Source: a virus
Taxonomy: Duplodnaviria; Caudoviricetes
IMG/VR virus record: IMGVR_UViG_3300029705_006902
Coordinates: 1 to 64,000 of that record
Length of the DNA stretch: 64,000 nt
Reading direction: 5' to 3' (one strand)
The position numbers and the translations under genes were made by a program. A model generated the notes under the pieces. That model saw only the letters and a list, made by a program, of their open reading frames with translations, did not search any database and was not told the origin of the DNA. Within the stretch, counting starts at the first letter, position 1; every line of letters starts with the position of its first letter. Positions 3,201 through 21,951 of the stretch are shown here, in pieces.

Positions 3201-3708
3201 CCCAGCCGCCAGTGGCAACGAGGGTGGTGCCGCTGTCAACGGTGATGTTACCTCCCGTTGCATACACACCGTAACCGCTGGCGATGCCAGTGGCGGTGAG
3301 GGTGCCTCCTCCGGAGAAGAGGATGTTAGTGTTCGTATTGAAAAGACCTACGCCGGAGTGTGGCGCTGTGGCCGCGCCGAAGCCGCCGGTGACGCTGTTG
3401 TTGCCCACCAGCTCGATGCGCAGTGTCTCCGCGCTTCCGTCATAGAAGATTCCCGTCGCGGCATCGGTGGCAGAGGTAAAGTTGTTGAGGGTGAGGGTAT
3501 TGCTTGCGGCATCCCAGTAGGCATAGCCGGTTTCGGGCTGTGTTGCCGATGCCTCTTTACTGCCGCTGGCCAGATAGGGTGTGCTGCTGCTCATATTCAC
3601 GCCGGAGATTGCTAAGTCGTCGCCATCCGCGGAGGCAGCCGCAAAGGCAAAGGGAATTGCTGTCACAACCATTAAGATTGAGAGGATGATTGATAAGAAT
3701 TTTTTCAT
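1..3708 (-). CDS. Large secreted surface protein (1235 aa): signal peptide, Gly-rich beta-helix-like repeats, GLUG-like region, Cys/His repeats, conserved Cys/His C-terminal domain
   Basis: N-terminal MKKFLSIILSILMVVTAIPFAFA signal peptide; repeated GVYAxxGxITVNGGSLTGxGG units; ISNAGQLYWFA...GTFDGNNHTV...GLFGY GLUG-type segment; RBS AAAGGAGAA overlapping the TetR stop. Confidence 0.85.
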   Translation of the reverse strand: MKKFLSIILSILMVVTAIPFAFAAASADGDDLAISGVNMSSSTPYLASGSKEASATQPETGYAYWDAASNTLTLNNFTSATDAATGIFYDGSAETLRIELVGNNSVTGGFGAATAPHSGVGLFNTNTNILFSGGGTLTATGIASGYGVYATGGNITVDSGTTLVATGGWAGSGVYADSITVNAGGSLTGNGGESDGTGVVAAGTGGITVNAGGSLTGNGGENGGHGVYASTGSITVNGGSLTGNGGNSSNSYGVYAYSGSITVNGGSLTGNSSASRGVDAYSITVENGGILEATGKDTGVYVAGTRESGGSITVNGGSLTAKGEKFGVYTYPNSISVSGDSHILATGGSSGNEIPVGNLPEDYYYYASGDGTDKTFAHSTDAPLTGTVRETYFELVTAQHLSDTYTSNGDATHSRYCSCALHTKVTAPEACSGGTATCIAKAVCDVCGKSYGELDPDNHDSSVNYDKNGFCEYGCYEPAVLNGDVYEISNAGQLYWFAQQVNIEGNAAANGKLMADIDLENRIWYPIGLYNDIAEANGSPVQQQYAGTFDGNNHTVSNFTAIGNGSQGLFGYCNYSSAQIKNLGVINATVSGWNAGAVAGYCANLTNCYAVGCTITGASDTNTDAVTISSVGGNNGPTAIVNCWAYNCKLVVGEGEANYVMHPVGGIRTSNSSIVQNCYYGEIVTEAEFTSTTGATEKTEAQFASGEVAYLLSGDQSTITFKQTLGTDAYPSFTGGTVYQVENCKGELGYSNTNENIGHQWVNGTCTVCEYACPHEKYTDGVCDKCGYECPHEWGEGVLTRPTFETAGYYTYTCTLCGHSYTEPTKRADDTALNDASVKVMEYIGNSTLTQEALDEIDKSYRDILKNNGNVFDEFGFVRGDLVEEDQPAINAVTAELEKIIADADEKIASGEYVKADYNGIYQAIHRIKDKFLYEDVTDEGKAGLEEIKKRFEAMKADENTSAADVAEFEKEIEAYEEELDKGIEDGTLVSVRPEKIATKFSDNWNEKLEAEGLLDERDDFINNQKFTDEALAAVDEIENFLVSLEGTVAENAENLAKLNEMFNSVSASWENCLRGTHNFNDYEVTSPAKCEVNAKETSTCWFCGETDEREVEGTALKHSYTKYEVTEEAECGKAGKEVASCDHGCGATDEKEIEALEHADKDGDYLCDHGCGYEFEKPVEPEQPEDPSENCDHLCHKSGIMSIFWKIIRFFYRLFNIQQYCDCGVIHYDAPVFG

Positions 3709-3711
3709 AGT

Positions 3712-4416
3712 TTATTCTCCTTTAGGGAATGGGTATTTGGTTTGTATCTGAAGTTCATCGAAAACACTTTGCACCGCCTCTTTTGCAACGGTCGCAAAAT
3801 CAATTTTTTCGATAAACTCAATTGCCTCGGTGATTTTTTCATCTTCCGCCTTATAAATACGCAGAAGCATTGTTACGAGTCTTTTTGCTTTTCCCTCAAT
3901 AGTAAAATACATATCGCAGGGAATAGTCATATATGCTCTCATAATGCCCATAGAAGCGATTTCCGTTTCGTAGAAGTCTTTTAGCTTGAAAGTTTTAAAC
4001 GTTTCGCTGAAGGATTCATGCATCATGTTTGCTCTTCGTTTCAGCACCTCTTCACTTGTTTTCGGCATCGAATAGCCTGCAAGGTAAAGGTTGCGCATAT
4101 CCTCGTTCATTTCTGCCATATAAAGCTGTAAAACCTCATTGGCCAAAAAGATCAGAACGAGGTCATCCGTAAGCTTTTTTGAAACCGCATCCGATGCACT
4201 CGTCACACCGTCCAGAAAACGTGTGACAAGCAAGCCCAGAATTTCCTCCTTACTGCTGAATTCATAAAGAATTTTGCTTTTGGGCACCCCGGAAAGCTTT
4301 GCAATATCGGAAAAGGTGGTTCGCTCAAAGCCCTTTTGCATAAACAGCGTTGTTGCTGCAATCAGAATTTTTCTGTGCAGCTCAGCGGTTGCCTGTTCAC
4401 TTCTTATATTCGCCAT
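3712..4416 (-). CDS. TetR/AcrR family transcriptional regulator (234 aa)
   Basis: N-terminal HTH signature KILIAATTLFMQKGFERTTFSDIAKLSGVPKSKILYEFSSKEEIL. Confidence 0.92.
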   Translation of the reverse strand: MANIRSEQATAELHRKILIAATTLFMQKGFERTTFSDIAKLSGVPKSKILYEFSSKEEILGLLVTRFLDGVTSASDAVSKKLTDDLVLIFLANEVLQLYMAEMNEDMRNLYLAGYSMPKTSEEVLKRRANMMHESFSETFKTFKLKDFYETEIASMGIMRAYMTIPCDMYFTIEGKAKRLVTMLLRIYKAEDEKITEAIEFIEKIDFATVAKEAVQSVFDELQIQTKYPFPKGE

Positions 4417-4443
4417 AAGTTAAACTCCTTTTCGCACTCCCTG

Positions 4444-4463
4444 AAATAAACCGCGGTTTATTT
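4444..4463. promoter_or_regulatory. Perfect 20-bp palindrome, candidate TetR operator
   Basis: AAATAAACCGCGGTTTATTT lies between the -10 box and the RBS of the TetR gene. Confidence 0.65.
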
Positions 4464-4472
4464 TCTTTTATT

Positions 4473-4501
4473 ATTTTAAAGTAATAAAACAAATCTGTCA
4501 A
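4473..4501 (-). promoter_or_regulatory. Sigma-70/A promoter of TetR-surface protein operon 1
   Basis: TTGACA-17 nt-TAAAAT on the minus strand. Confidence 0.75.
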
Positions 4502-4539
4502 TAGCTAAAATAATAATTTTCTACATAATAGTGAACAAC

Positions 4540-4565
4540 ACCGCCGAGGATTTCTCCCCGGCGGT
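4540..4565 (-). terminator. Probable intrinsic terminator after surface protein 2
   Basis: ACCGCCG...CGGCGGT stem about 20 nt past the stop codon; weak U-tract. Confidence 0.5.
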
Positions 4566-4587
4566 AAGTTTTAGTAAGTATTAAATT

Positions 4588-4791
4588 TTATCCGAAAACG
4601 GGTGCATCGTAGTGAATCACACCGCAATCGCAATACTGCTGGATGTTAAAGAGTCTGTAGAAGAATCTGATAATCTTCCAGAAGATGCTCATAATGCCTG
4701 ACTTGTGGCAAAGGTGATCGCAATTTTCGGAAGGATCTTCAGGCTGTTCGGGTTCAACGGGTTTCTCGAACTCATATCCGCAGCCGTGGTC
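4588..4791. repeat. 204-bp near-identical repeat, copy 2
   Basis: Matches 1-204. Confidence 0.9.
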
Positions 4792-7700
4792 ACACTTATA
4801 GTCGCCGTTGTCGTCCTTATGGGTGAGCTTATCAATCGTCTGTTGTGCGGTAATAACGGCACCGCATATTGCACACTTGACACCGTCTGTAAGACCTGCC
4901 TTTTCGCAAGTTGCGGCATAGCCCTTTACAGTTTCTTCGGTGTGCTCTGCCACGGGGATTTCCTTATAAGTTGTGTAGTCACAGGCGGTGCAGTATTCGT
5001 AAGCTTCCCAACCGATTTCTGTGCAAGTAGGTGCCTGTGCTTCTACCTGCACAAGAGTATCCTTGTGGTTGGTCGCAGGGATTTCTCTTGGGTTCACAGC
5101 ATCACAGTAGTCGCAAGGTGATGTTTCCTGACCTGCTTCGGTGCAAGTGGGAGCCTTTGTTTCGACAAAGCTTGTGAAAGAGTGTTCGCAAGCTTTACCA
5201 CATTCAGTACATTCACCGAATTTCCATGTATGTCCGGATTCTTCACTGATAAGACCGCAGTCACATTCCTTCCAGTGCTTTTCTGCATCATTCTTCCATT
5301 CGCCGCTGAAATCGCAGGTGTGAACGGATGTGACCTCAAATGTATCCGACATTTCGGTGGTGCCGTCCGCAAAGGTGACTTCACAGGCATACTGACCGAT
5401 TGTATCGGGTGTGAGGGTGTCGGTGGTCTGACCGTCAATTGCGGTGTAAACACTGCCGTCCATGTAGGCTCTGACTGCTACGCCGGAAACGTTGGGGATT
5501 GAAAAACCGTAATAACCGTCTGCCGGTGCGGTAAACGAAATCGTTGTGCCGTACTGCTCAACAGTCCACTCATCCGTGAACATACCCGGATTCTGTACAT
5601 AGGCGATCCACCATTTGGAAACCGATTCGGAGGCTTCAAGTTCAACCGTTTCGCCTTCCTGCAATTCAATGACGAAATAATAACCTTCGGGGCTGGTCCA
5701 ACCGATTTCGGAATCATACTCACCGTAAATCTCGGAGGGAGCACCCAGCAAACCCCAGGAGCCGGTTGCTTCTTCATCCGTAATTTCGACTATGCCGCCT
5801 TCAACTGTGTACCACTGATAAGAAGCATCGGTGTTGTCATTGAGTTCCACATAGGGTTCTTCTTCGGTAGGCTGATGGGTGATGGCATACTTGTATTCAA
5901 AGGAATCGGATACTTCGGTTGTGCCGTCTGCAAAGGTGACTTCGCAGAGATAATGGTTCCCGTATGCAGGATTGCTGAGTGCAGCCCCGGTCTCACCTTC
6001 AATTGCACTACAGACCAAATCGTCCATGTAAGCTTTGACGGTGACAACACCACTGTTTACATAAGTATAGAACGTATAATTGCCATCGGCTGTTACCGTT
6101 ATTTCATATGTATTGACACCGGATTCGACTTCTTCACCGAAATCCTCGTCGGCCGCGTAATCATAAAGACCGACCCAGTCATAGAAATCTCCCGTAAGTT
6201 CGATTATTACCGTATCTCCCGCTTCAAGTGCAAGCGTAAAGAAGTCATGTCCGTAATCACCTTCATTACACGGCACACCGGTCCAACCCGCTTCTGCATC
6301 ATAAGAGCTATCGCCCCAATCGTAAGAAACAGTGCCGGCATTTTCTTCTGTGATCTCAATCGTTTTGTATTCGATCTCATACCACTGATAAGAAGCATCG
6401 GTATCATTGCTGAGTCCTACATAAGGCGCTGTTTCTGTGGGCTGATGAGTAATTGCATAAACAAAGCTTCCGCAAATTGCGCATACAGCACCTTCTTCTA
6501 AATAATGACCGCAATCAACGCCGCATTCAAAGCCGCACTTTTTGCAGACTTTTCCGTCAAGCTCATGCTTGCATTGAATTGTTATAACTCTGTAGTTTTT
6601 CGCATTGGCACTGTCGTATTCGACAAGATAAGTTGCGTCAGCCTTTTCACTTGCGAGAACCATGTACTCAGAGTTGTATTCGCTGAAATCGGGAGCAACA
6701 TCGAAAACGGGATATTCCGCTGTATTGTTACCTGCAACAAGAGTACCGCCGGTAATCTTTATTGAGTCAGCTGAAATTGCTTTTTCATATTCACTGCTTA
6801 CAATTAACTTGCCCGCATTGACAGTAACCTCTGCGACATAAATTCCCGGATAACCGTTTCCGCCGTGGGCTTTCAGGCTTCCGCCGTCAACAGTAACCAC
6901 ATCTGCTTCAATGCTTTCTTCATCAACGGCAATATAAACATCAGCATTGCCGCTTACAATGACTGTTTCGCTTTCATTTGCAGAGATATAAATACCTTCT
7001 TCGTCGTTATTTACAAGCGAAACCTTTGCATGATCAGTAAAGGTTACAGTCGCTTTGGCAGTATCGACGATATAGATACATTCATCTTCGCCGTCTACTG
7101 TTAATATGCCGTTATCCTTAACAAGAATTTCAACGCTGTTGGAATCGCTCGACACAACAACACCTTCTGAAATTGCTTTTATGTTCAATGTACTGTTTTC
7201 GTTTACAGTAAGCTTGATATCATTATTGGAATCAATATCCACACCGTCAGTTTCGGAGTTTACATTAAGTGTTACGCTGTCCTTGACGTTTATTTCAATG
7301 TTTTCATCAGAATCATTTGCAGAGTCAGCATATATTCCGTTATCGATAGCTTCTATGTCTAATTTACCTGTTCCGCCGATATTGATAACAGTGTCATCCT
7401 CTGCATATATACACAGACCGTCAACGGCAACAATTTTGTTTTCGCCCTTCACTTCAATATTCAGAGAGCCGTCACAAATAATGCCGCAGTCCGCTCCCTC
7501 ATAGCTGAAGCCGTCAAGAACAAGAGTATTTGTATCCGGAACATAATATACCGTTGCACCCTCATCTGCATCACCGAGAATATCGGTGTAATTACTGCCG
7601 TCTACATAGATTCCGCCAACGTAAATCCCGGGTGCACCAATCAGAGCATTGCAAATATCACAGATATTGTCGCCGTTTTCGTCTGCGCATTTGCTTACTG

Positions 7701-9873
7701 TTATTCCGCATTCTGTACAAAAATGTTTTTCTACATCATCGATGTGAGGACATTCATAGCCGCAAACACCACATTTGCCGTTTGTTACATTTTCGTGAGG
7801 ACAGCTGTAACCACAGCCCTTTGCGCAGATACCGTCTTTATTTGACAAGTCATGCTGACAAGTTGTATAAATAATCTGTCCGTCTGTAAGAGTGCTTCCG
7901 TCTGCACAGCTGTAAACCGTTTCACCGTCAACTACAACGGCAAAGTTACACTCTTCGGAATAATTTCCTGCAACCCAATTGAAGGTATAAATACTGTCTT
8001 TGGGGAGAAATACTGTCAGGCTTCCGTTTTCGCCGTATTCAATGGTTGCTGTTCCCACTTCCGTATTTACTCCGTCAACAAGAAGCTTAATTACAACGGC
8101 ATTTCCGTTCCAACCGTCACCGTAGCTGTCGGTCATTTCAATTGTAACGATTGTACCTTCTGTGCCGCAGCCATCACACTTGTTGCCTGTGATACTTTCA
8201 TGAGTACATTCATAACCGCAGATGCACTTGCCGATATAATCCAAGCTATGCTCGTGTGTATCAATTTTGATTTCCGCATAGGTCTTGCCGTCAAGGGCTG
8301 CTTTCATGTCAGAAACAGGTGTAAATTCACTTTCTGTGTCATATCTTACAAAGAAATAATCACTTTCAGTAAGCCCGTCTGCTTTTAAAATATCACCATT
8401 GTCCTTATCAATAAGTTTGTATGCACCGCTTACAGTAAGCAAAGCACCCTTATCTATTGTTATTTCATTGCGTATAGCTTTATATTCTCCCGAAGTGCTG
8501 ATAACATTCAGTGTACCGCCGTTGAGTTTAACCGGTGAGCCGATTACTTCGTAAGAATCATTTGAAGCAGTTACCGTGCCATCATTGATTATAAAATTAC
8601 CGCAGTTTATAGTATAAATGCTTTGGCCAACAGTTTCAAGAACCATATTGCCGCCGTTTACTGTAACGGAGCTGTCGCTGTTACCACCGTTATAAAAGCG
8701 GGCAGCCTTGAATGTGGCATCATCACTTCCTTCAAAAACAAGATGTTGTTTGTAAAGAGCTACCCTGCCTGCAATCTCGTTCGTTCCTTCAAATGCTATA
8801 TTTATCACTGCGTTATCAGCAACAGCTATATTTAAACCGGAAACTGTAACATTATTGAATGTCAAGTCACAGGCTTCATAAACAGAAACCTCACCCGAAG
8901 TCGTGCCGGTTAAAATAATGCCGTCTTCATCGTAATTGGATGAGTCGATGGACACATATGATTCATCTGTTACATCAATAACAAGCTTGCCGAGATTTGC
9001 ACCGCAGACTTGACAGGAGCCGTTCTGTCCTTCGTGAGGACATTCATAGCCGCAAACACACTTGCCGTTTTCAAAGCTATGCTCATGTGTGTCAATTTTG
9101 ATTTCTGCATAGGTCTTGCCGTCAAGAGCTGCTTTCATGTCAGAAACAGGTGCAAATTCACTTTCTGTGTCATATCTCACAAAGAAGTAATCGTTTTCTT
9201 CTGCATCGTCAGCCATAACGATATCTGAATACATATCAAGTATTCCCTTTGTGGCACTTACGGTAAGCAAAGCGCCTTTTTCTATAATGATACCACCCAA
9301 GATAGCTTCATAATCGGTCGATGTACTTATCATATTCAGCTCACCGCCGTTAAGCGTAACGGGGTCAAGTACCACATAATAATAATTGTTAGAAGCGGTA
9401 ACCGTTCCGCCGTTGATTATAAATCCGCCTGCACAGATTATTGTAGGTAAAGTGTCTTCTGTAACGCAGTCAAGAATGATATTACCGCCGTTTACGGTAA
9501 CGGAGCCGGGGTGACCAGCGGTATTAAAACTCGAGGTCTTTAATGTATCCGTTTCGCCACCGTCAAAGATAATATGTGATTTATATACATCTACGAATTC
9601 TACCTCTGTTGTTCCGTCAAGGGTTATATTAATCACGGAATTATCAGGTGCATACTGAAAAACAAGACGTCCTGTAGTAAGATTGCTAAGTATCAGATCT
9701 GTTTCTTCACGAACATAAACCATTGCATCCGGATTTGTTCCTGTGATAATATAGCCGTCCTCGTCATAATACGGATAACCCTTACCGATATCCACAGTTA
9801 ATTCGTCGGTAACATCAATGACCAGCTTGTCAAGATTTGCACCGCAGACTTGACAGGAGCCGTTCTGTCCTTC

Positions 9874-10179
9874 GTGGTGACATTCGTAGCCGCAAACATC
9901 GCAAATGCTGTTTGTGTAGCCTTCGTGGGGACATTCATAGCCGCAAACATCGCAAATGCTGTTTGTGTAGCCTTCGTGGGGACATTCGTAGTCGCAAACA
10001 TCGCAAACACCGTCTGTGTAGCTTTCGTGGGGACATTCGTAGCCGCAAGCATCACATTTGCTGTCGGTGTAGCTTTCGTGGGTGCATTCATAGCCGCAAG
10101 CATCACATTTGCTGTCGGTGTAGCTTTCGTGGGTGCATTCATAGTCGCAAACATCACAAACACCGTCTGTGTAGCTTTC
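9874..10179 (-). repeat. Six tandem 51-bp coding repeats (17-aa Cx-HExYTxxxCDxCxYE)
   Basis: Direct inspection: 6 x 51 bp, in frame in surface protein 2. Confidence 0.85.
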
Positions 10180-11003
10180 GTGTTCACCGGTTGCAGGAAT
10201 CACTTCACCTGATAAATAAGCATCACATTGTGCACAGTAAAGACCGGCTGTGTGTCCGTCAGCCCCGCAAGTTGCATCTCGGGCTGTCTTTTCCTCCAAT
10301 GCACCGAAATGAACGGGAATTGTGTTAATTCTATCTGTTTCGTTTTCGGGCTTCGTGATTGCTTCCCACTGTGCTTCAGTTCCCGTGAAGTGCACTGCTT
10401 CAAGCGCATCACAATAGTTTATTACATCATTTTCGATTGAAATTACATTACTGCCGATTACAAGGTTTTCAAGATAACTGCAGCTATAAAACATACTGGA
10501 GATAATTTCAGTAAGCTTTTCAGGTAAAACTATATTTTTAATTTCTGAACAACTGAAAGCGTTATAGTCTATAAAATTTACATTTTTTCCGAAATGAACT
10601 GTTTCAACCGAAGAATAAAAAAAACAAGACTCATTCATTGTAGTAACATCGTCAGAAATGTTTATTGTTTTAAGGTTTTCAGAAGACGAAAATGAATCAT
10701 TGCCTAAGATCAGAACACCTGCCGGAACGGTATAGGTTTCGTCTGCCTTTCTTACAGGATACATAACAAGCTCAGTTTTATCGGCATTGAAAAGAACACC
10801 GTCAATAAGAGCGTAGGTGGAATTTCCTTCCGCGAGCTTAAACTCGGCAAAATAGTTATTGCCATAAGCATCCATCTCATTCACAGTTGAAGGGATTGAC
10901 AGAGAAACAGCATTGGACAAATCATAAAAAGATCCCTGTCGAATATTCGTTATACCTTCCTCAATTACAACATCTTTAATGCTGCTTTCATAAGCCAGCC
11001 AGG

Positions 11004-11562
11004 TGTGCCGAAAACAAAAATTCTTTATGAAATGAACAGCAAAGAAGAAATCCTTGTTCACCTCGTGACGAGATTTCTTGACGGTGTTACGGCGGCATCG
11101 GATGCGGTTTCAAAAAAGCTTACGGATGACCTCGTTCTGATCTTTTTGGCCAATGAGGTTTTACAGCTTTATATGGCAGAGATGAACGAGGATATGCGAA
11201 ACCTGTATCTTGCAGGCTATTCAATGCCGAAAACCAGCGAAGCGGTTCTGAAAAGAAGAGCCGAAATGATGTATGCGCATTTCAGTTTCAGATTTCCCGA
11301 GCAGGAATTAAAGGACTTTTACGAAATCGAAATTGCTTCAATGGGAATAATGAGGGCATATATGACCGTTCCCTGCGATATGTATTTTACTATTGAGGCA
11401 AAAGCAGAAAGGCTTGTAACAATGCTGCTGCGTATTTACGAGGCAGAAGAGAAAATAATCAACGAAGCGCTTGAATTTATTCAAAAAATTGACTTTGAAG
11501 CAGTGGCCGTAAAAGCTGTTGAAAGTGTATTCAATGAGCTTGAAATAAAAACTAATAAATGA
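11004..11562 (+). pseudogene. TetR regulator 2, C-terminal fragment (inside the inversion)
   Basis: VPKTKILYEMNSKEEILVHL... is closely similar to 3712-4416 from the second HTH helix onward. Confidence 0.88.
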
Positions 11563-11584
11563 TTTTCGAAAGGAGAATAAACAA

Positions 11585-12243
11585 ATGAAAAAACTTTTAT
11601 CAATCATCCTCACAATCTTAATGATTGTGACGAGCGTACCCTTTGCCTTTGCGGCAGATGTCAGTCTTGTAATCAATATGACCGACAGCTACGGTGACGG
11701 CTGGAACGGCAATGCAATTCAAGTGGGCACTGTTTCCGGCGGTGAATTCACAAAAATTGCAGATGTGACATTTGACGAAGGCGCAACTGCCACCTATGAG
11801 GCAGCTATATCCGACGAAAATGTTTATGCTTTCAGATGGACCAAGGGTTCTTATGCCGAAGAATGCAGCTTCAGCATCGTTATAGGCGGTAAAACTGTTT
11901 TAGAGGCATCTGATTGCAATGCTTATGCACCGGATGGTATTATTTATACCACTTGCAATCACAGCTTCAGCGACAGCATCTGCTCAATATGCGAACTTGA
12001 ATGCGGTGTCGATTTTGCACACACTATGAACAGTGACAGTGAATGTACCGCTTGCGGTTTTATATGCAGCCATAGCTATACTAACCATTATTGCAAAACC
12101 TGCAAAACTACAGAGAACGGATATTATGCCGGTGTCTGCGGTGCAGAAAACATGAACGATGCAATCTGGTCACTTGATTCACAGGGAACTCTTACTATCA
12201 GCGGTACAGGTAAGTACGATGTAGAATATCTTAACGCTCCCTG
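11585..12243 (+). pseudogene. Surface protein 2, N-terminal fragment with signal peptide (inside the inversion)
   Basis: MKKLLSIILTILMIVTSVPFAFA is paralogous to the protein 1 signal peptide; DSYGDGWNGNA domain recurs in the C-terminal fragment; frame ends in TGA at the junction. Confidence 0.88.
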
Positions 12244-12367
12244 ACATTTTTGCGATGTCCGTTATTGTGGTGCGCTCAAAGCCTTTCTGAATAAACTGTG
12301 CCGTTGCAGCTGTGAGAATTTTTCTGTGTAATTCTCTGCTTTCTGCTTCACTTCTTACATTCGCCAA
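12240..12367 (-). pseudogene. TetR regulator 2, N-terminal fragment (TTG start, outside the inversion)
   Basis: (M)ANVRSEAESRELHRKILTAATAQFIQKGFERTTITDIAKMSG matches the paralog N-terminus; RBS GAAAGGA upstream. Confidence 0.88.
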
Positions 12368-12397
12368 ATCATCACATCCTTTCTGAAACACACTTCA

Positions 12398-12455
12398 AAG
12401 TAAACCGTGGTTCAATTTCCGAAGTAATATTATCACAATGTTAAAATATTGTCAA
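12398..12455 (-). promoter_or_regulatory. Promoter (TTGACA-17-TAATAT, 12427-12455) and degenerate operator (12398-12417) of TetR operon 2
   Basis: AAGTAAACCGTGGTTCAATT matches 16/20 positions of the 4444-4463 palindrome at the equivalent position. Confidence 0.6.
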
Positions 12456-12537
12456 TATGTTTGATGTAAAAAAATTTAATTTTTTTACGGTTTTACGACA
12501 GCATAAAAATGTTACTTTTATTTGTATGCAAAAAAAA

Positions 12538-12726
12538 GGTTCCTCACGGAAAGTTGTGGGATTTTTGATTAAGGGAAATGCAAATTACGGTTTATCGGGG
12601 TCTTTGCAAAGTGAATTTCCCTCTCAAACACTTGCCGCCCCTGAAAGGGGGATTGATGAGCAACAAAGAAAGAGAGCGATAAACCGTAATTTGTTTTCTT
12701 CATCCCACAACTTTCCGTGAAGAACC
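12538..12726. mobile_element. 189-bp non-autonomous MITE with ISL3-family-like terminal inverted repeats
   Basis: 25-bp TIRs GGTTC(C/T)TCACGGAAAGTTGTGGGAT (1 mismatch); internal perfect 17-bp IR (12581-12597/12677-12693); A-runs of 8 and 7 nt on either side, consistent with an AT-rich target duplication; no transposase. Confidence 0.7.
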
Positions 12727-12734
12727 AAAAAAAT

Positions 12735-12771
12735 AATCCTACGCTCATTGTATCAAAACAAGCGTAGGATT
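12735..12771 (-). terminator. Intrinsic terminator downstream of the tRNA 3' end
   Basis: 11-bp stem AATCCTACGCT/AGCGTAGGATT followed by a U-tract on the minus strand. Confidence 0.75.
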
Positions 12772-12772
12772 T

Positions 12773-12794
12773 TGGTGCCGGTGACCGGGCTCGA
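12773..12794 (-). tRNA. 3' fragment of a tRNA (Leu-like; T-loop to CCA), candidate integration-site remnant; not a full tRNA
   Basis: Minus strand TCGAGCCCGGTCACCGGCACCA: T-arm 3' side, acceptor strand pairing with a 5' GCCGGTG, discriminator A, CCA; no D arm or anticodon arm upstream. Confidence 0.65.
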
Positions 12795-12877
12795 CTCTCG
12801 CGTTGCGACGCTTAGGTCACTGCGCGGCTCTGAACATTCACTGAATGTTCATTCACTCCCGCGCCGCTTCGAGCCCG
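12786..12877. repeat. 92-bp nested hairpin element fused to the tRNA 3' end
   Basis: 9-bp outer IR CGGGCTCGA/TCGAGCCCG, inner CGCGG/CCGCG and a perfect 10-bp TGAACATTCA/TGAATGTTCA stem. Confidence 0.7.
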
Positions 12878-12889
12878 TTTCATGGAAAT

Positions 12890-12929
12890 AAAAAAACACA
12901 CGCAACCGCAAGGGCGCGCGTGTTTTTTT
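12890..12929. terminator. Probable bidirectional terminator at the island edge
   Basis: A7-CACACGC...GCGCGTG-T7 with a GCAA apical loop. Confidence 0.6.
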
Positions 12930-12965
12930 GTAGTTCCACGCATATTTTAATACAAAGTTTGAAAT

Positions 12966-13016
12966 TTTGCAACCCCCTATTTTAGGGGTTTCAATTTTTA
13001 TTTAGGGGGTTGCAAA
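12966..13016. other. 14-bp perfect inverted repeat, candidate recombinase att/binding site
   Basis: TTTGCAACCCCCTA-N23-TAGGGGGTTGCAAA, with related GGGTTTCAAT motifs at ~12986 and ~13028. Confidence 0.4.
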
Positions 13017-13040
13017 TTGGTTTCAGAGGGTTTCAATGGT

Positions 13041-13373
13041 TCAATCGCACTCATTTGCGATGAAATCATACAGTGCCCCAGGCTCTTTCAAACACCATTT
13101 CTTATCCCCATTAGGAATAGACACCTCATAGTTATCAGTTGCATCGTAAAGCCACCAGGAAATGTACTCGTACTTGTCGTTCATCGCTTCAGCCAATACG
13201 AGCAGCAGAGCCTCCTGGTATTTGTTTTTCACACCGAATACAAAGCACCCGTCTCCGACTTTCTGTAGCGCCTTACTGAAATCAATATCGGTTGATTCTT
13301 GTTCCCGTATCAATTCCAAAGCTTTACAAAAAGTGTCTTTTGAAATCATAGGTTTTTCTTTCATCTGTTTCAC
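13041..13373 (-). CDS. Hypothetical protein (110 aa; phage/ICE type)
   Basis: ORF overlaps the upstream stop (ATGA coupling); ends the minus-strand gene run. Confidence 0.65.
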   Translation of the reverse strand: MKQMKEKPMISKDTFCKALELIREQESTDIDFSKALQKVGDGCFVFGVKNKYQEALLLVLAEAMNDKYEYISWWLYDATDNYEVSIPNGDKKWCLKEPGALYDFIANECD

Positions 13374-13846
13374 CCAAGCAATGACTCATCTGCATCTGCC
13401 ACAGAGTTTAGAAACAGATTTTTTTCAATGCAATCAAACAGAAAGTTTACTACTTCGAAATTACACTCTTCCTCCGGCTTCGCAAATTCCCAATGGATTA
13501 TCTCCATTATTTCAGCTTTTGTGAAGTACAAACCCGTGGCATAAAGATTCTTGATTTCTTCCAAAGTATATTCAGGAGGTGTAAAATACATATCAAGATA
13601 TTTTGCTAAATAGATTTCAGCAACTAAATCTTTCTGCCATTCAGGTAATCTCTTTTTCATTTTCTTTATGGCTTTTAACTCATCAGCAGATAACTGTTCT
13701 GGGGCCATTTGTTGCAACAATAAAGCATTAAGAATTGTTTCTCCCGTTTCAATCATTTTCTGCCGTTCTTCAATTGAATCTATGCCACACAAAGAGGGGC
13801 TGTATGAAATTAACTCATCTAATTTGCATCTATTCATTGCTTTCAT
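13370..13846 (-). CDS. Hypothetical protein (158 aa)
   Basis: RBS GGAAGG upstream; coupled to the next gene. Confidence 0.65.
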   Translation of the reverse strand: MKAMNRCKLDELISYSPSLCGIDSIEERQKMIETGETILNALLLQQMAPEQLSADELKAIKKMKKRLPEWQKDLVAEIYLAKYLDMYFTPPEYTLEEIKNLYATGLYFTKAEIMEIIHWEFAKPEEECNFEVVNFLFDCIEKNLFLNSVADADESLLG

Positions 13847-13895
13847 CCTTCCATCTCGTTATGGTTAATTGTGGCTTTTTCGCCATAATTAGGTT

Positions 13896-14087
13896 TTAGT
13901 AAGTGAAGGGTATTCTTCCCGTTCTAATTATCTCCTTGAACAACCCATTAATTAGTTCTTGAAATGAAATGTTTTGTTCAACAAGAATTTGATTAAGCTG
14001 CAAGTATTCTTCTTCGGGCATTGACACAATTAGCTGAAAAGAACCATCCTTGTTCCTCTCAAATCTTATGTTCTCATCCATTTTCAT
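13896..14087 (-). CDS. Small protein, RelB/DinJ antitoxin-like (63 aa)
   Basis: Size, helical middle and C-terminal IIRTGRIPF resemble RelB/DinJ ends; RBS GAAGGG. Confidence 0.4.
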   Translation of the reverse strand: MKMDENIRFERNKDGSFQLIVSMPEEEYLQLNQILVEQNISFQELINGLFKEIIRTGRIPFTY

Positions 14088-14148
14088 TCACCCTTCGTAA
14101 TATAAGTGTCGGAAACAAGAAAAAGTAACAAAACTTTTCATAAAATAT

Positions 14149-14403
14149 TTATGCTTCATCGTAGAAACACGAAAACCGGAAAAATTCCGCTATAATTCGT
14201 ATAGTGTTTGACAACTCATAACACACATTTTTTAATTCCTCGTTGTTCAATACATCGAGGTATTTTTTCTGTTCTTCTCGGCTCAAGTCCGAAAAGCACC
14301 TCTCAACGGTTTTTCCATTTCTTTCAACTTCGCTGTAAAGCCTATCCAAACCCCTGGGTTCAGGAATTTGGCTTTCGTCTTTGATATCCATATTTCTCTG
14401 CAA
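14149..14403 (-). CDS. Hypothetical protein (84 aa), paralog of 15953-16255
   Basis: Shared R-x-LD...V-x-RNG...E-x-CF-x-DLS..EQ...LD....EEL...C..L pattern; RBS GGAGG. Confidence 0.7.
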   Translation of the reverse strand: MQRNMDIKDESQIPEPRGLDRLYSEVERNGKTVERCFSDLSREEQKKYLDVLNNEELKNVCYELSNTIRIIAEFFRFSCFYDEA

Positions 14404-14479
14404 CCTCCATTTTTAGTTCAGTATCTGTAAAAAACTATTTGCTTTGTTTGAGGATTTCCTCAATGGTTTTAGAACAGAT

Positions 14480-15181
14480 TTAAACACCAGAGTAAAATTC
14501 CTCCATATCATCAAGGCGCAAGCAAGAAAGCCGTCCTATGTCGCCATAAGCACAGCCACAATCTATTCCTATACGGTCATCCCATTTGCAGATTTTCATT
14601 ATTTCATCATCTTGATACTGCCAAGTAGGGGTATGACCGAAAATCATAGTTTTGCCTTCCGGCACAGATGCCGTTTCCGAATCGCGAGTCCAAACGGCAT
14701 ATTGTTTGACGCTGTCGTATTTACTTAATCTGTCGATGTAATTATCAGTAATACCTGCGTGTACAAGAATATAGTTTTTATCATTTACTGTGACCTCGAT
14801 ATTTAACGGCAACGAATCAAGATATTCAAAGATTTCTTTTCGGACTTCTTTCCTCGTATGTTTTATGCTGTTATGGGTAACTGCTCCGCCATTGCTATAC
14901 CAATTGTTCAACCGGGCAAATGATTTGAAATTTTTTGAAAATTTATCCACATCATCAATTGGATAGTACAAAACATTTAACATCATAAGCTCGTGATTGC
15001 CGAGCAGCATTTTTATATTTGGAGTTTTCATTATGTATCGCAGTATTCTTATACCGCCATCGCCTCGGTCAACCACATCGCCTAAAATATATAAAGTGTC
15101 CTTTTCGCTGAATTTTATTTGCTTTAACATATCACGGAAACGGGCTTCATTGCCGTGAATATCTGACATTACATAAACCAC
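14480..15181 (-). CDS. Metallophosphoesterase, PPP/lambda-phosphatase-like (233 aa)
   Basis: Motifs SDIHGN, GDVVDRG, LGNHE, HAG, FGHT. Confidence 0.9.
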   Translation of the reverse strand: MVYVMSDIHGNEARFRDMLKQIKFSEKDTLYILGDVVDRGDGGIRILRYIMKTPNIKMLLGNHELMMLNVLYYPIDDVDKFSKNFKSFARLNNWYSNGGAVTHNSIKHTRKEVRKEIFEYLDSLPLNIEVTVNDKNYILVHAGITDNYIDRLSKYDSVKQYAVWTRDSETASVPEGKTMIFGHTPTWQYQDDEIMKICKWDDRIGIDCGCAYGDIGRLSCLRLDDMEEFYSGV

Positions 15182-15218
15182 TTTATTCTCCTTTCAATTA
15201 TTAGGGGTTCCATACATT

Positions 15219-15956
15219 TCATTCTTCTCGTTGTCGGTAATACCATTCCTTTTTTCTTTCGAGTTCTTTTTTTATTTCGGTTACATCGTAGTCACTATAT
15301 TTTTCAACAGCCTCAATAAAATCTACAATTATTCCACCTGACAAACAATGCTCATAGCCTTCAAACCAGGAAAAATTGTTGTCTGATTTCACTGGAATAA
15401 TCGGCTCATCGTAAGAAACAAAAAGGTAATCGTATTTAAGATAATGGTTGTCGATGAGGTAATTAGGTTTATACCATAAATGCTTTACCCCTTTTGCAGA
15501 AATATAGCCGTGTCTTTTATACAAATATCCAAACACATACCAAGGTGGTAAATCAGAAGCATATATCTTCGTTGGGTATTTGCCTTGCGACAACAAATAA
15601 CGGTTCGGTTGGGCTGTAGGGTCAAAACTATGCCTACCCAACCTTGCCCCCATATATAAAGTTGAATTGATTTTTTTCTTTGTTTTCTTTTTTCCGTAAT
15701 CGAGCTCCTCGAAAACGATTGTGCCGTCATTCGTTTTTATGGTGTGTATACCCGTTGTTTCATCAAGACTATGCTCGTTTACTACAACATTTACGAACAA
15801 GCTATATTTATAGAGTATGTGTCGAAATTTGAGTATTTCACCAATTACTATATCATCAACATTCGCATACAAACCGGTAAATCCTTCATATGGGCTACCT
15901 TCACAATCTAAATCTTTACCCTCATCTGACATTGCAGAGATTATCACAATATTCAT
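15219..15956 (-). CDS. Hypothetical protein (245 aa)
   Basis: Long ORF coupled to upstream gene; no recognisable motif. Confidence 0.7.
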   Translation of the reverse strand: MNIVIISAMSDEGKDLDCEGSPYEGFTGLYANVDDIVIGEILKFRHILYKYSLFVNVVVNEHSLDETTGIHTIKTNDGTIVFEELDYGKKKTKKKINSTLYMGARLGRHSFDPTAQPNRYLLSQGKYPTKIYASDLPPWYVFGYLYKRHGYISAKGVKHLWYKPNYLIDNHYLKYDYLFVSYDEPIIPVKSDNNFSWFEGYEHCLSGGIIVDFIEAVEKYSDYDVTEIKKELERKKEWYYRQREE

Positions 15957-16255
15957 TTCTTAACCTGCTTTCTTTTACACGGGATTTTAATCACAAAGCC
16001 GAAACGCTTCATACCTTCAGTAGCTTCAGGATGATTACTTAAATCCTCAACTTCTGCAACATTACGAAAATCAGTAGCAAGAGTTTTGCACAGTTTAATG
16101 AGTTCCTCACGAGAGGCACCATCTAAAATTGCATTTTGCTCTTTTTCAGAAAGGTCTGTAAAGCAAAGTTCAAGTTCTGTGCCATTGCGAACTGTGTTAT
16201 AAATCGTGTTGTCCAAATAGCGTACTAATGGATAATTTTCTGTCTTAATATTCAT
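15953..16255 (-). CDS. Hypothetical protein (100 aa, start MNIKTENY), paralog of 14149-14403
   Basis: RBS GAAGG before ATG at 16255; the longer ORF-track start overlaps the upstream gene. Confidence 0.7.
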   Translation of the reverse strand: MNIKTENYPLVRYLDNTIYNTVRNGTELELCFTDLSEKEQNAILDGASREELIKLCKTLATDFRNVAEVEDLSNHPEATEGMKRFGFVIKIPCKRKQVKK

Positions 16256-16268
16256 GTTTTTTACCTTC

Positions 16269-16901
16269 TCAACCATCACCGAAAATATCGTTACAAAATT
16301 CTGTAAAGTTAATATCGATTCCGGGTTCAAAATTTTCATCGTCATTTTGCAATTCGTCAATTGATCTGAATACTTTTTCTTGAACTGCAAGTTGGGTACG
16401 TGTGTGTGGTGGCTCATTAATGATAATGTTTGGGAACCCCCAATAATCATCGTCACGATTCAGCCATTCTCCACGTGTGTTTTTATATTGCAAACCAACA
16501 ACATCGGTGCTTAAGCAACGGAAGTAGTTATTCTCTGCTTGAAACCAGTAATGTTTTACTTTAGCTGATTTGAAACGCATATAATAAGGAAAGCCATAAA
16601 TATTTTTATGCTCCCAAGTATAATCTCTCATTTCGTGTTCAAATGTAGCTATGAGATTTACCGGTTGCAAAAGCCTATGCTGATTGTATGCAACATAATG
16701 TGTTACTTCCGTATCGCCAGAACAAAATTTATCAAAGGCATCAATTAAACAGCCATGGTCTTTTGATAGTTTTTCATCAGCCTTCAATGAATTAATTAAT
16801 GATGCGATTTCACCTAATGTTCCGAAGTATTGTTTATCACCACTTGCGATACCAGGAAGTGCGTAGTCATCCAAGGTTAATGCGTAATACTGTTCTTTCA
16901 T
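16269..16901 (-). CDS. Hypothetical protein (210 aa)
   Basis: ATGA-coupled to the upstream phosphoesterase. Confidence 0.7.
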   Translation of the reverse strand: MKEQYYALTLDDYALPGIASGDKQYFGTLGEIASLINSLKADEKLSKDHGCLIDAFDKFCSGDTEVTHYVAYNQHRLLQPVNLIATFEHEMRDYTWEHKNIYGFPYYMRFKSAKVKHYWFQAENNYFRCLSTDVVGLQYKNTRGEWLNRDDDYWGFPNIIINEPPHTRTQLAVQEKVFRSIDELQNDDENFEPGIDINFTEFCNDIFGDG

Positions 16902-17596
16902 TCCATCCCTCCCACAAAGCCTTTAAATAAAAAGACCATATTATCAATTTTTTTGTCTATATGCCAATGACCGCAAAACCACTTTTTATATTCAAGTTTG
17001 TCCTCAATAAAGTCGAGCCAAGTTTCAGTGCTTTTATCAATCAATTCTTGATTCAATCCGGGAAGAAAGGCTTCCTTGGGTTCGTACTTCAAAGGACATG
17101 TATGGCTTAAGACCTGGTCAATTTTCCAATCAATACTTTCAAGTTTTGTTTCTACGCGGGCCTTTGTTTCTTCTGAAGGCTGTTCGTCTGGAAACCAAGA
17201 TAAACCATGTTTTAGCCGATAAGGTTTATCTACCGAATAGGCTCCTCCGATAACAAGAGTTGAACAACCGTCAAGGTCGTATATTTCACCATCTTTAGCA
17301 AATTTTATGTAGGGGTATTGCTCTTCTGTATATACTACGCCACCATTCCATATACTTTCTTTATAAGTTGATATGGTTTCTGGGCGCATTTCGTGATTGC
17401 CGTGAATACAGAAAATATTTACCCCCATATAATTAAGCCGATATTTGTTCCTTCTCTCTCCGAGCGTGTTTCCATAATAATTAAGACCAACATCACCAAG
17501 TATTACAATGGTATCTTTTTCGGTTAAATTAAATCTGCGTATGAAATTTTGTATTGGGAGTACATTCCCGTGAATATCACCTGTATAATAAATCAT
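16898..17596 (-). CDS. Calcineurin-like metallophosphoesterase (232 aa)
   Basis: Motifs GDIHG, LGDVG, HGNHE, SHTCP, GHWH. Confidence 0.9.
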   Translation of the reverse strand: MIYYTGDIHGNVLPIQNFIRRFNLTEKDTIVILGDVGLNYYGNTLGERRNKYRLNYMGVNIFCIHGNHEMRPETISTYKESIWNGGVVYTEEQYPYIKFAKDGEIYDLDGCSTLVIGGAYSVDKPYRLKHGLSWFPDEQPSEETKARVETKLESIDWKIDQVLSHTCPLKYEPKEAFLPGLNQELIDKSTETWLDFIEDKLEYKKWFCGHWHIDKKIDNMVFLFKGFVGGME

Positions 17597-17612
17597 TATT
17601 TTTCCTCTCTTT

Positions 17613-17831
17613 CTACTTTGTGTTTTCAGTATCAGGAATTATTTCCATAATGTCCCCAAGCTTACAATTGAGTACCAGGCATATTTTTTCTAATACATCG
17701 GTTCGCATGTTTCCGCCTTTACCCATTTTGGTTAATGAAAAATTACTAATGCCAGCGGCTTTTGCCAGATCTCCTTTTTTCATTTCTTTATCAATCAGTA
17801 GTTTCCATAGCTTTTTATAACTTACTTTCAT
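17613..17831 (-). CDS. Cro/C1-type HTH protein (72 aa from MKVSYKKLW)
   Basis: SYKKLWKLLIDKEMKKGDLAKAAGIS...LEKICLVLNC is the HTH_26 pattern; RBS AAGGAG. Confidence 0.85.
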   Translation of the reverse strand: MKVSYKKLWKLLIDKEMKKGDLAKAAGISNFSLTKMGKGGNMRTDVLEKICLVLNCKLGDIMEIIPDTENTK

Positions 17832-17981
17832 TTTGAACACTCCTTAAAGATAAATCTTTAATTACAACGATTGTACCTTTGCCGAAAAATATGGTCAATA
17901 ATTTTGGCGTTTTCATATCAGATATGATTTCAAAGAGACTCCAAGTATTATCTCGGAGCCTCTTTTTTGTGCATAAGCACA

Positions 17982-18359
17982 TTAGTAATAAAACGAAGTC
18001 GGCTCTTGATTTGTCTTCATCCATTCATTACCGCGCAAGCTCTCTTTTACAGCGAGTGCAACATCATAAATAATACGTTTTTCACAGGTGTTGCAATCCT
18101 TGACAAGTTCGGTCAGCTCATTACAGTATTGCTTTTTGTCACTAACCTGGTTGCCATAAAGAAGTTGGTCAACAGTAATGCCGAGAACATTTGAAATGCG
18201 AACCAAACTTTCGAGACTTGCTTTCTTGAGACCCGTTTCAATATGACTTATGTACGAAACGGAAAGGTCTGTAAATTCAGCCAAGTCCGCTTGAGACAAT
18301 TGCTTCAAAATACGAACCTCCTTTACCCGTACACCTATCATTTTGTGGTTCAAAACCAT
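17982..18359 (-). CDS. Xre-family HTH regulator (125 aa from MVLNHK)
   Basis: IGVRVKEVR...LSQADLAE...SYISHIETG; RBS AGGAGG. Confidence 0.88.
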   Translation of the reverse strand: MVLNHKMIGVRVKEVRILKQLSQADLAEFTDLSVSYISHIETGLKKASLESLVRISNVLGITVDQLLYGNQVSDKKQYCNELTELVKDCNTCEKRIIYDVALAVKESLRGNEWMKTNQEPTSFYY

Positions 18360-18373
18360 ACTTTTTTCACCTC

Positions 18374-18471
18374 CTATCGTAAAATTATGATGCATTATAA
18401 CTACGATAGTGGAAGATATCCAGTATAGTTTATTCTTTTTGTCGACTATACACGATATAATCTTGTATAGT
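18374..18471. promoter_or_regulatory. Divergent control region with two operator-like inverted repeats
   Basis: CTATCGTA/TACGATAG (18374-18409) and ACTATACA/TGTATAGT (18445-18471). Confidence 0.45.
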
Positions 18472-18495
18472 GATAGTTTTTTAGGTGGTAATATT

Positions 18496-18840
18496 ATGGT
18501 AACTGATAGGAAAACATTAGGCAAACGAATACATGACGCCCGTAAGTCCAAAAAAATGAGTCAATTTGAACTTGCTGAAAAGGTTGACATCTCTATTTCA
18601 CATTTAAGTAGTATTGAAAACGGGCGCACAAGTTTTGGGGTTGAAATATTTATGAAAATAGTTGAAGCCCTTGATATTTCTTCTGATGAATTGCTTCTCA
18701 TCAAGACCCCCGCTGTAAAAGATATGTTGAACACTGAATTTGAAGAAATAATTTCTGATTGCAGTCCCGCAGAAGTAATTAGCATTTTGAAAATGGCAAA
18801 GGAAATGCGAGAAGCAATCAGGACGGCAAAATCAGAATAA
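18496..18840 (+). CDS. Xre-family HTH regulator (114 aa from MVTDRK)
   Basis: LGKRIHDARKSKKMSQFELAEKVDIS...SIENG; RBS AGGTGG. Confidence 0.88.
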   Translation: MVTDRKTLGKRIHDARKSKKMSQFELAEKVDISISHLSSIENGRTSFGVEIFMKIVEALDISSDELLLIKTPAVKDMLNTEFEEIISDCSPAEVISILKMAKEMREAIRTAKSE

Positions 18841-18863
18841 AACTTAATAAATGTATTTTGTTT

Positions 18864-18899
18864 AATAACCATAGGTATAGGAATGTACCTGTGGTTATT
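18864..18899 (+). terminator. Probable terminator after the Xre gene
   Basis: AATAACCATAGGTA/TACCTGTGGTTATT stem followed by T-rich run. Confidence 0.55.
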
Positions 18900-18959
18900 T
18901 TTCTTTTCTTCTTAACTAATGTACACTTTGATACATAAAAGTAAAACGGAGTGACTTAA

Positions 18960-20858
18960 ATGTTAAACAGTTCAAAACGGCTGCTCAAAGCCGAGCAGAA
19001 AGAAAAAATCAGGCAGAGATATAGGGGCATGGACACATCCAATATGGAAGTAATTCCGGCTGAAGCTGCTCCCGATTTTTATGATGAAAAATTTAAACGA
19101 GTGGCAGTATATGTTCGTGTTTCGACAGATAATATCCAACAAACCACCTCATTTGAAATTCAAAAGAATTACTATGAAGACATGGTTGACAAGCACGATA
19201 ACTGGGCCTTGGTAGACATCTATGCCGATGAAGGTATTTCAGGTACTTCTTTGATGCATCGAGAGGCTTTTAATCAGATGATTGATGACTGCAAAGCTGG
19301 AAAAATCGATTTGATAATTACAAAGAGCGTGTCCCGTTTCGCGAGAAATATCGTTGATTGCATTAGAATTGTAAGAGAGCTGTCCGAGATGAGAGACCCG
19401 GTTGGCGTTTTCTTTGAGACGGAGCACATATTTACTTTAAAAGAAGACACCGAAATGACGCTCTCGTTTCAAGCGGCTATGGCACAGGAGGAGTCTCATG
19501 CAAAGAGCCGCATAATGAACTCCTCATTAGAGATGCGATTTAGCCATGGTATTTTGTTGACCCCCGAACTTTATGGTTACCGCCATAACGAAGAAGGCAA
19601 ATTGATAATTTGTGAGGAAGAGGCACCCGTTGTACGATTAATTTTCTTTATGTATCTTTATGGTTATACGAGTCAGCAGATAGCTGATACACTAACTAAA
19701 CTTGAAATATTAACCCCAAAAGGAAAAAGTGAATGGGCGTCAGGAACTGTTCTTGGAATTCTCCGCAATGAAAGACATTGTGGCGATGTTTTAACAAGAA
19801 AAACATATACACCTAATTATCTAAATCATAAATCTGTCAAAAACAGAGGAAATAAGACGCAGCATCTATGGAGAGAGCAACACGAGGGCATCGTTTCTCG
19901 TGACGATTTTATTGCCGTGCAGCACTTAATTAATAATGCTAAATACGGAAACAAAGGAATTCTGCCCGAATTAAAAGTAATCTCAAGCGGTGCATTAAAA
20001 GGATTTGTATCCATTAATCCCCGATGGGGAGGTTTCACACGGGACGATTATTACGAGGCATCTGCGAGCGTTGTTCCGGATACCCCTACGCAAGATGAAC
20101 CAATACAGGTAACTGCTAAATCAGGTGAGTTTGATTTGCGTGGTTTTGAAATTGCTCGGTCGCAGTTTTTCGATACCCAAGATAAAATGTGCATATCATT
20201 TTTCTGCGACCATGTCACATTTTCTACATCGTGTATTAAAAAGTTCGACAAAAAAATGTATGTAGAAATCCTTGTCAATCCGGTTCAACATTTACTTGCA
20301 GTTCGACCTTGCGATAAAACTGTGAGGAATGCTCTCAAGTGGTCACGCCTTACCCCCGATGGTGATTATGTTCCGAAAGTAATCAGCGGAGCAGCTTTTA
20401 TAAAAACCATGTATGATTTGTTTGAATGGATCCCGGAATACCGATATCGAATAAGAGGTATAAAGAGAACAAAAGGAGATGAATCTATACTTATATTCGA
20501 TTTAAAAGAAACAGAACTTTTCATCCCCAAAGCCGTGCTTGATGCCGAAACCCAAGATGCCGAACATAGCGATGTTACTCCGGTAATGCCTGATGTTCGT
20601 GAAAAAGTCGTAGCATATCCAAATGATTGGGCGGACAGCTTTGGTAGTGATTATTATTTGCACGCCCAAACAAATGAAACCCCTATGTGTATGGATGGCG
20701 AGGAAAAATGGGAAAAAGCGGATGCAAAAAGCATACCTTTCATGCCAGAATTACAAGTTACGGCACCGAACGATATTGCAAACAATATTCAACAAATAAT
20801 TAGTGATATTAAAAACACAGCTTCCAAAGACGGAGCAGATTTAGGAGGAAATGAATAA
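18960..20858 (+). CDS. Atypical large serine recombinase (632 aa): resolvase + recombinase domains, no zinc ribbon, novel C-terminal domain
   Basis: RVAVYVRVST catalytic motif, DEGISG, TKSVSRFARN, ILRNERHCG; no CxxC zinc ribbon after the recombinase domain. Confidence 0.9.
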   Translation: MLNSSKRLLKAEQKEKIRQRYRGMDTSNMEVIPAEAAPDFYDEKFKRVAVYVRVSTDNIQQTTSFEIQKNYYEDMVDKHDNWALVDIYADEGISGTSLMHREAFNQMIDDCKAGKIDLIITKSVSRFARNIVDCIRIVRELSEMRDPVGVFFETEHIFTLKEDTEMTLSFQAAMAQEESHAKSRIMNSSLEMRFSHGILLTPELYGYRHNEEGKLIICEEEAPVVRLIFFMYLYGYTSQQIADTLTKLEILTPKGKSEWASGTVLGILRNERHCGDVLTRKTYTPNYLNHKSVKNRGNKTQHLWREQHEGIVSRDDFIAVQHLINNAKYGNKGILPELKVISSGALKGFVSINPRWGGFTRDDYYEASASVVPDTPTQDEPIQVTAKSGEFDLRGFEIARSQFFDTQDKMCISFFCDHVTFSTSCIKKFDKKMYVEILVNPVQHLLAVRPCDKTVRNALKWSRLTPDGDYVPKVISGAAFIKTMYDLFEWIPEYRYRIRGIKRTKGDESILIFDLKETELFIPKAVLDAETQDAEHSDVTPVMPDVREKVVAYPNDWADSFGSDYYLHAQTNETPMCMDGEEKWEKADAKSIPFMPELQVTAPNDIANNIQQIISDIKNTASKDGADLGGNE

Positions 20859-21565: not shown

Positions 21566-21951
21566 CAGCAGGATTACCGGCTTCATTGCTTGTGGATTTT
21601 TCAAAATTCAGAGTTTGCATACATACCAGGGTTCTGTCTGCTTTAGGCAATCCCGATTACATATTGCTTATGGTAAACCCAAACGAAAAGAGTATCGCAA
21701 TTATGCGAGGCTCTGAAAAGTTTGCAGACACACATAGAGTTTCGTATAACAAATTGAAAGATGGTCGATGTTGCGAAATTTATAGTCGTTCTTTTGTAAA
21801 AAAATTATTAGAGGTTTGTCCCGAATGGAGAGTAAAAAGCACCTACAGATTAAGTGGCGATGTGATTCAAGGAAAATCAATAGCTGTATTTTCAATGACA
21901 GGTGCGGAGGAATTACGAGTTAGCAAGGAGGCTGATATTGATGGTCAATGA
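21562..21951 (+). CDS. Hypothetical protein (129 aa), third, more divergent copy of the same domain
   Basis: RVCIHTRVLSALGNPDYILLMVNP...IAI...W....YRLSG...AVF. Confidence 0.75.
   Translation: MTAGLPASLLVDFSKFRVCIHTRVLSALGNPDYILLMVNPNEKSIAIMRGSEKFADTHRVSYNKLKDGRCCEIYSRSFVKKLLEVCPEWRVKSTYRLSGDVIQGKSIAVFSMTGAEELRVSKEADIDGQ

Follow-up and report, generated by a model that had tools for sequence, protein, structure and literature searches.

Our analysis indicates that the 1,244-bp segment at 11000..12243 of the window (the whole 64,000-nt stretch of DNA analysed here) now stands inverted relative to its ancestral orientation, breaking a tetR gene and a giant surface-protein gene at once. Very probably this was a recent, strain-specific, one-off inversion by illegitimate short-homology recombination and not the work of a programmed switch. 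The record is filed as viral and consists of a single contig of 74.7 kb, of which the window covers the first 64 kb; the first ~13 kb of the window are bacterial flank, and the inverted segment belongs to a ruminant-gut Clostridia chromosome. The ancestral locus would have been a minus-strand two-gene operon with one promoter, in which tetR (228 aa) was followed after 22 nt by a gene for a 2,356-aa secreted surface protein of the LRR_5 (BspA) type. A reciprocal break-and-rejoin between CAGG, in the helix-turn-helix codons of tetR, and CCTG, 1,240 bp downstream in the giant gene, would then have turned the intervening DNA around without loss of a base.

The present arrangement is a set of four gene fragments around two short matches. 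The left copy of the inverted microhomology, CAGG (11000..11003), contains the crossover somewhere inside it, and the right copy, CCTG, lies at 12240..12243. On what is now the plus strand, the segment carries the 3' part of tetR, a 22-nt spacer and the opening 219 codons of the giant gene. The 5' fragment of tetR (12244..12367, minus strand; 41 codons) encodes the first half of the helix-turn-helix and continues in translation into 21 unrelated codons, forming a hybrid open reading frame at 12179-12391, while the 3' fragment (11002..11562, plus strand; 186 codons), with the second half of the helix-turn-helix and the ligand/dimerisation domain, is separated from its own start and promoter. 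The spacer contains an AGGAG-type ribosome-binding site and leads into the 5' fragment of the giant gene (11585..12244, plus strand; 219 codons), which encodes a signal peptide and a Cys-rich N-terminal domain, stops at a TGA made by the junction itself (12242-12244) and is now oriented towards the tetR promoter. The remaining 2,136 codons of the giant gene (4588..10999, minus strand) encode LRR_5 repeats, 17-aa repeats of a CxxC type and, at the C-terminus, a domain rich in Cys and His that includes a hydrophobic stretch; inspection of the in-frame starts of this remainder found none with a Shine-Dalgarno sequence. Upstream of tetR, outside the inversion and thus retained, a consensus scan found a putative promoter, TTGACA-17-TAATAT with TG (12427..12455, minus strand). 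Rfam and ARAGORN searches gave nothing credible in 12250-13300 or across the window.

Profile scans covered the separate pieces of both restored proteins. The 41-aa tetR stump alone matched TetR_N (PF00440) at 27.2 bits (cut-off 24) over profile positions 1-24 of 47, which places the breakpoint inside the helix-turn-helix, at position 24; the paralogous TetR encoded nearby scored 45.6 bits with the same profile. With a TetR_N match above the gathering score at its N-terminus, the broken regulator is a predicted TetR-family protein. The 3' piece of the giant gene matched LRR_5 (PF13306) at 91.8 bits (cut-off 27.7; E 4e-26), and the 5' piece begins with a signal peptide that looks typical by eye (MKKLLSIILTILMIVTSVPFAFA). 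The combination of LRR_5 above its cut-off and a secretion signal identifies the giant protein as a predicted BspA-type LRR_5 surface protein.

Reverse-complementing 11000-12243 in silico joins these pieces exactly. One product is a 228-aa TetR (...AKMSG|VPKTK...) and the other a 2,356-aa LRR_5 protein (...LNAP|WLAYESS...), neither with a stop, a missing base or an extra base at the junction. The paralogous TetR at 3712-4416, identical at 177/234 positions, reads AKLSGVPKSK at the position of the tetR junction. These results uphold what the original prediction had drawn from the sequence, namely a clean 1,244-bp inversion at 4-bp CAGG/CCTG matches whose reversal rebuilds both proteins with no base lost, and the paralog motif was found at the same position as claimed. 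Given the junctions seen in relatives and in contigs of other samples (below), the exact match of the restored genes is far beyond chance.

Relatives of the locus preserve the re-inverted arrangement. A scan of one genome per prokaryote species for relatives of the TetR piece recovered 80 loci, nearly all in Acutalibacteraceae or Clostridia MAGs from sheep, goat, deer and similar guts. In 78 of these, an intact TetR gene shared 66-92% identity with the tetR 3' fragment (39-45% in the two outliers), and the intact open frames encode 237-243 aa in the three that were checked. When the re-inverted operon was aligned, the tetR junction was colinear in all 80 loci, and the second junction was colinear in both available orthologs of the giant gene (L074, 92.5% identical over 2.3 kb, and L016, 91%). 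By BLAST, the present sequence instead breaks into pieces at 11000-11003 and 12240-12243 against the relatives. Two relatives contain the restored junctions letter for letter over about 75 nt, L004 at tetR and L074 at the second site. From the colinear relatives and these verbatim junctions, we conclude that the inversion is the derived state and that the reconstruction is exact. Recurrence of the same breakpoints in related genomes, which the original prediction had proposed to look for, was not found: none of the 80 cassettes is inverted at the tetR site, nor are L074 and L016 at the second. Among viral contigs, neither fragment had a relative and a 35-mer from the segment had no exact match, and in a search of metagenome contigs the N-terminal domain of the giant protein had only distant relatives (30-51% identical).

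The record is a metagenome-derived contig, and multiple-displacement amplification typically generates inverted chimeras joined at short microhomologies; both points favour an artefact, i.e., an assembly misjoin or amplification chimera that is absent from cells, as the original prediction had allowed. Public sequencing runs make this extremely unlikely. Twenty runs match part of the stretch, and four of them (X1, X2, X7 and X10) were examined, all as Logan contigs, an assembly independent of the one behind the record. Two 2018 faecal metagenomes, X1 and X2, carry the window's strain in pieces with 0 mismatches and probably come from the record's source campaign. In both, the inverted right junction is spanned by a mismatch-free contig of 388 nt (12188-12575) whose depth is 10-13, compared with 15-26 (X1) and 13-19 (X2) for flanking pieces, and the ancestral joint occurs on no contig of either run. 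Thus, the junction is present in the real DNA of at least two runs. The inverted left junction was absent from the pieces listed for X1 and X2, whose contig ends at 10996; strain variants best account for this end, which is uninformative about the junction. Support for the left junction is indirect and comes from 185-aa gene calls in public contigs.

By exact look-up, the truncated 219-aa and 185-aa products were found on 13 public contigs from JGI/IMG, NCBI, ENA and GEM, the longest of 404,980 bp, and the 70-aa hybrid open reading frame spanning the right junction is present in an NCBI record. X1, X2 and the 13 contigs may derive from one sampling campaign, i.e., one strain seen many times. 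A chimera would be expected to have the backing of one assembly or library only, whereas here independent junction contigs coincide with truncated reading frames on 13 contigs of up to 405 kb, and on these grounds an artefact is excluded for practical purposes. Moreover, a 4-bp repeat is too short to mislead a k-mer assembler, and two exactly reciprocal junctions are not expected of a chimera.

Strains from other studies show the alternative arrangement. X7 (2025) and X10 (2024) contain strains 97-99.7% identical to the window in the giant gene, and contigs of both runs connect 11003 with 12239 on opposite strands through 4 shared letters, the un-inverted joint; one X7 contig also spans the un-inverted tetR junction. 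Both orientations therefore exist in near-identical strains, and none of the four runs shows both at contig level, a level at which rare variants are dropped. Two other opposite-strand joints (9074 to 11678 and 10005 to 11716), with sides of only 31-38 nt, were taken as matches to paralogous genes and set aside.

The junction sequences themselves point to illegitimate short-homology recombination because the exchange was conservative within 4 bp, the breakpoints are free of elements, repeats and recombinase genes, and the two sites are otherwise unlike each other. CAGG/CCTG is the only sequence common to both junctions, and the exchange was reciprocal, with nothing inserted or lost. In agreement with the original prediction that longer inverted repeats are absent, a seed-6 search found none in register at the junctions; the best pairs (71-85% matches) were out of register and at chance level. 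No mobile element, repeat or recombinase gene lies at the breakpoints. By chance, about 1.6% of random joins would show a junction microhomology of at least 4 bp (probability about 0.016). A CCWGG site that is lost at one junction and gained at the other was considered and dismissed as coincidence.

These features place the event in a known class, spontaneous short-homology inversions, and it calls for no new mechanism: a microhomology of a few bp (4 bp, at both junctions) joins breakpoints that carry no element or site, and the state is derived and lineage-specific among colinear relatives. Spontaneous inversions at short inverted homologies have been documented in Salmonella, and those mapped genome-wide in S. 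Typhimurium LT2 likewise arose without long homology of the RecA type, ended in short inverted matches with no mobile element or recombinase site at the junctions, and were strain-specific and gene-disrupting.PMC3411829 They differ from the present case in that verified LT2 inversions had at least 12 bp of junction homology, compared to 4 bp here, and were detected as rare junctions in a chemostat, whereas this inversion appears to be fixed in a natural gut population.PMC3411829

The enzymology of the inversion can be framed in two ways. Type IIA topoisomerases cleave DNA with a 4-nt stagger, and the reciprocal exchange here, which lost no base, falls within exactly 4 bp. The neatest route would accordingly be for two cuts of 4-nt stagger to be religated crosswise, following the subunit- or interface-exchange (Ikeda) model of illegitimate recombination by DNA gyrase, which this exchange resembles in both respects.PMC11164529 The evidence for that model comes from in vitro and phage-packaging systems, and its operation in vivo is itself unproven,PMC11164529 and gyrase is a candidate here by resemblance. 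Microhomology-guided end joining could alternatively have produced the same junctions.

A further reading, which the original prediction had offered as short-core phase variation, is that a recombinase with a very short core reversibly flips the segment and so turns the TetR and surface-protein operon off and on. The perfectly conservative exchange, the otherwise intact state of both genes (as expected of a reversible element), the occurrence of both orientations in near-identical strains and the presence of recombinase genes 7-17 kb away would all fit such a switch. Surface proteins are also typical targets of phase variation, as in intragenic and partial-intergenic invertons, and like invertons and shufflons the inversion overlaps coding sequence and decides whether a surface protein is made.10.1101/2023.03.11.532203 However, described invertons are defined by the inverted repeats that their recombinase recognises,10.1101/2023.03.11.532203 usually of at least 10 bp, and here the matches do not exceed the 4 bp of CAGG/CCTG, with no recognisable inverted repeats. 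The stretch 4588-12500 and its immediate surroundings are free of recombinase genes, and three large serine recombinases are encoded 7-17 kb away inside a mobile element.

The distribution of the two states also argues against a switch. All 13 contigs with the exact 219-aa product are necessarily in the OFF form, and a contig of this exact strain in its ancestral form was not found; at contig level, none of the four runs contained both orientations. The inversion is not conserved in relatives (0 of 80 cassettes at the tetR site and 0 of two orthologs at the second), a goat-caecum MAG with the same mobile element (L012) has an intact tetR, and the "ON" state requires no flip in any relative. 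In contrast to invertons, one of the two orientations here is merely a pair of dead genes. We consider a reversible switch very unlikely, and phase variation of this kind found no support in the missing flanking repeats, the single orientation per run at contig level or the breakpoints, which recur in no relative.

The three large serine recombinases lie at 18960-20858, 25924-27504 and 27501-28808 (Resolvase and Recombinase domains, with or without Zn_ribbon_recom), at the distance the original prediction gave for them. Their presence in an adjacent mobile element raises the possibility that a prophage large serine recombinase acted once, off target, on the two ancestral sites as inverted pseudo-att sites. 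Such enzymes need only an identical 2-bp crossover dinucleotide, the exchange was conservative, and the right breakpoint lies ~0.7-0.8 kb from the end of synteny with element-free strains (12930-13019). Yet no breakpoint coincides with an end of the element, the ancestral sites are dissimilar outside the 4 bp, and no dyad symmetry was seen around it by eye. L012, moreover, carries the same element beside an intact tetR: its positions 1-9510 are 99.3% identical to window positions 12770-22276 over 9.5 kb, a shared stretch that includes the first 3.3 kb of the 632-aa recombinase module and runs to the end of the L012 locus at window position 22276. In this MAG, the element stands at the same place next to a different allele of tetR and the giant gene. 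The X7 strain, which lacks the element, diverges from the window at about 13019; from L012 and X7 together it follows that the same element occupies one site in different hosts, with its left end near 12930-13019. We regard off-target action of such a recombinase as unlikely. A one-off event, which the original prediction had listed among its possible causes, fits the data best, but nothing shows that a recombinase carried it out.

A hairpin of ~217 bp (12510-12726), formed by a long, near-perfect inverted repeat, is located between the tetR promoter and the point where synteny ends. In each of the four runs, its contig depth was 2.5-9 times as high as that of adjoining sequence, and some contigs omit exactly 12510-12726 and have 21 other letters instead. 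It looks like a multi-copy, MITE-like miniature mobile element.

The inversion would have left neither gene functional. The TetR allele is predicted to be null because the cut falls within the recognition region, through the DNA-binding helix. For the giant gene, a null allele is likewise predicted because the remainder is severed from its start, its signal peptide and the first 219 codons with the Cys-rich N-terminal domain, and begins without a Shine-Dalgarno sequence. The retained promoter, if functional, would now transcribe a stump of 62-70 aa followed by antisense RNA across the flipped segment. The original prediction held that the inversion "switches off" both genes; that two genes are broken and that both are restored by the flip stands, but the wording of a switch overstates the case. 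Its other option, a fixed pseudogenising event if only this orientation exists, agrees with our data, as holders of the inversion show this orientation alone as far as contigs tell.

Since the broken genes have acquired no further stop or frameshift in 7.8 kb, the event appears to be young. We infer fixation, or at least dominance, of the allele in the source-sample strain that carries the adjacent prophage; closely related strains elsewhere retain the intact operon. The loss was probably tolerated at little cost because cassettes of TetR plus a giant protein are multi-copy: a second cassette lies directly downstream (TetR 3712-4416, giant gene 1-3708), and many MAGs in the 80-locus scan contributed two TetR loci. 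The loss might also have been selected, for instance if it evaded phage attack or recognition by the host.

Several features of these cassettes vary between strains or recur between loci. Six tandem 51-bp units at 9871-10182 encode 17-aa CxxC...CPHE repeats in the giant protein; an X10 contig omits 303 nt (9843-10145) and L074 lacks the same stretch, from which we conclude that the repeat number of the giant protein differs between strains. For most of their length the two giant proteins encoded side by side show no relationship, yet they share an identical C-terminal domain of 78 aa (window 1-240 and 4588-4830), Cys/His-rich with a hydrophobic stretch (...GIMSIFWKIIRFFYRLFN...), which could be a shared anchor or reflect recent gene conversion between cassettes. 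In the X7 strain, identity to the window is only about 91% over 11002-11895, which carries the tetR 3' part and the opening 300 nt of the giant gene, whereas adjoining parts of the giant gene (11867-12239 and 10094-11003) are 98-99.7% identical. This mosaic suggests that tetR alleles have been exchanged, either from cassette to cassette or from strain to strain. Acutalibacteraceae MAGs from ruminant guts contain many TetR genes of this type (L001-L078), often with at least two loci per MAG. Among the few loci inspected, TetR stands directly upstream of a very large secreted protein in the window, L074 and L016; pairing each giant surface protein with a private repressor of its own may be a trait of the family.

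For annotation, the locus is a warning, as four open reading frame fragments represent two pseudogenes in a record filed as viral. The inversion can also serve as a strain marker. If orientations were truly mixed, the locus would be a notable case of a repeat-less switch of a surface-protein operon. It is also conceivable, with a very small probability in our estimate, that an enzyme-made and potentially reversible reaction left the exact 4-bp footprint, either subunit exchange by a type IIA topoisomerase or a prophage serine recombinase acting on repeat-less sites. In that case, the TetR-plus-giant-surface-protein cassettes of gut Acutalibacteraceae could be silenced, and rarely reactivated, by inversions invisible to repeat-based inverton finders. 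As a probable one-off event, the inversion is a well-documented natural gene-killing micro-inversion, with both states seen in near-identical strains.
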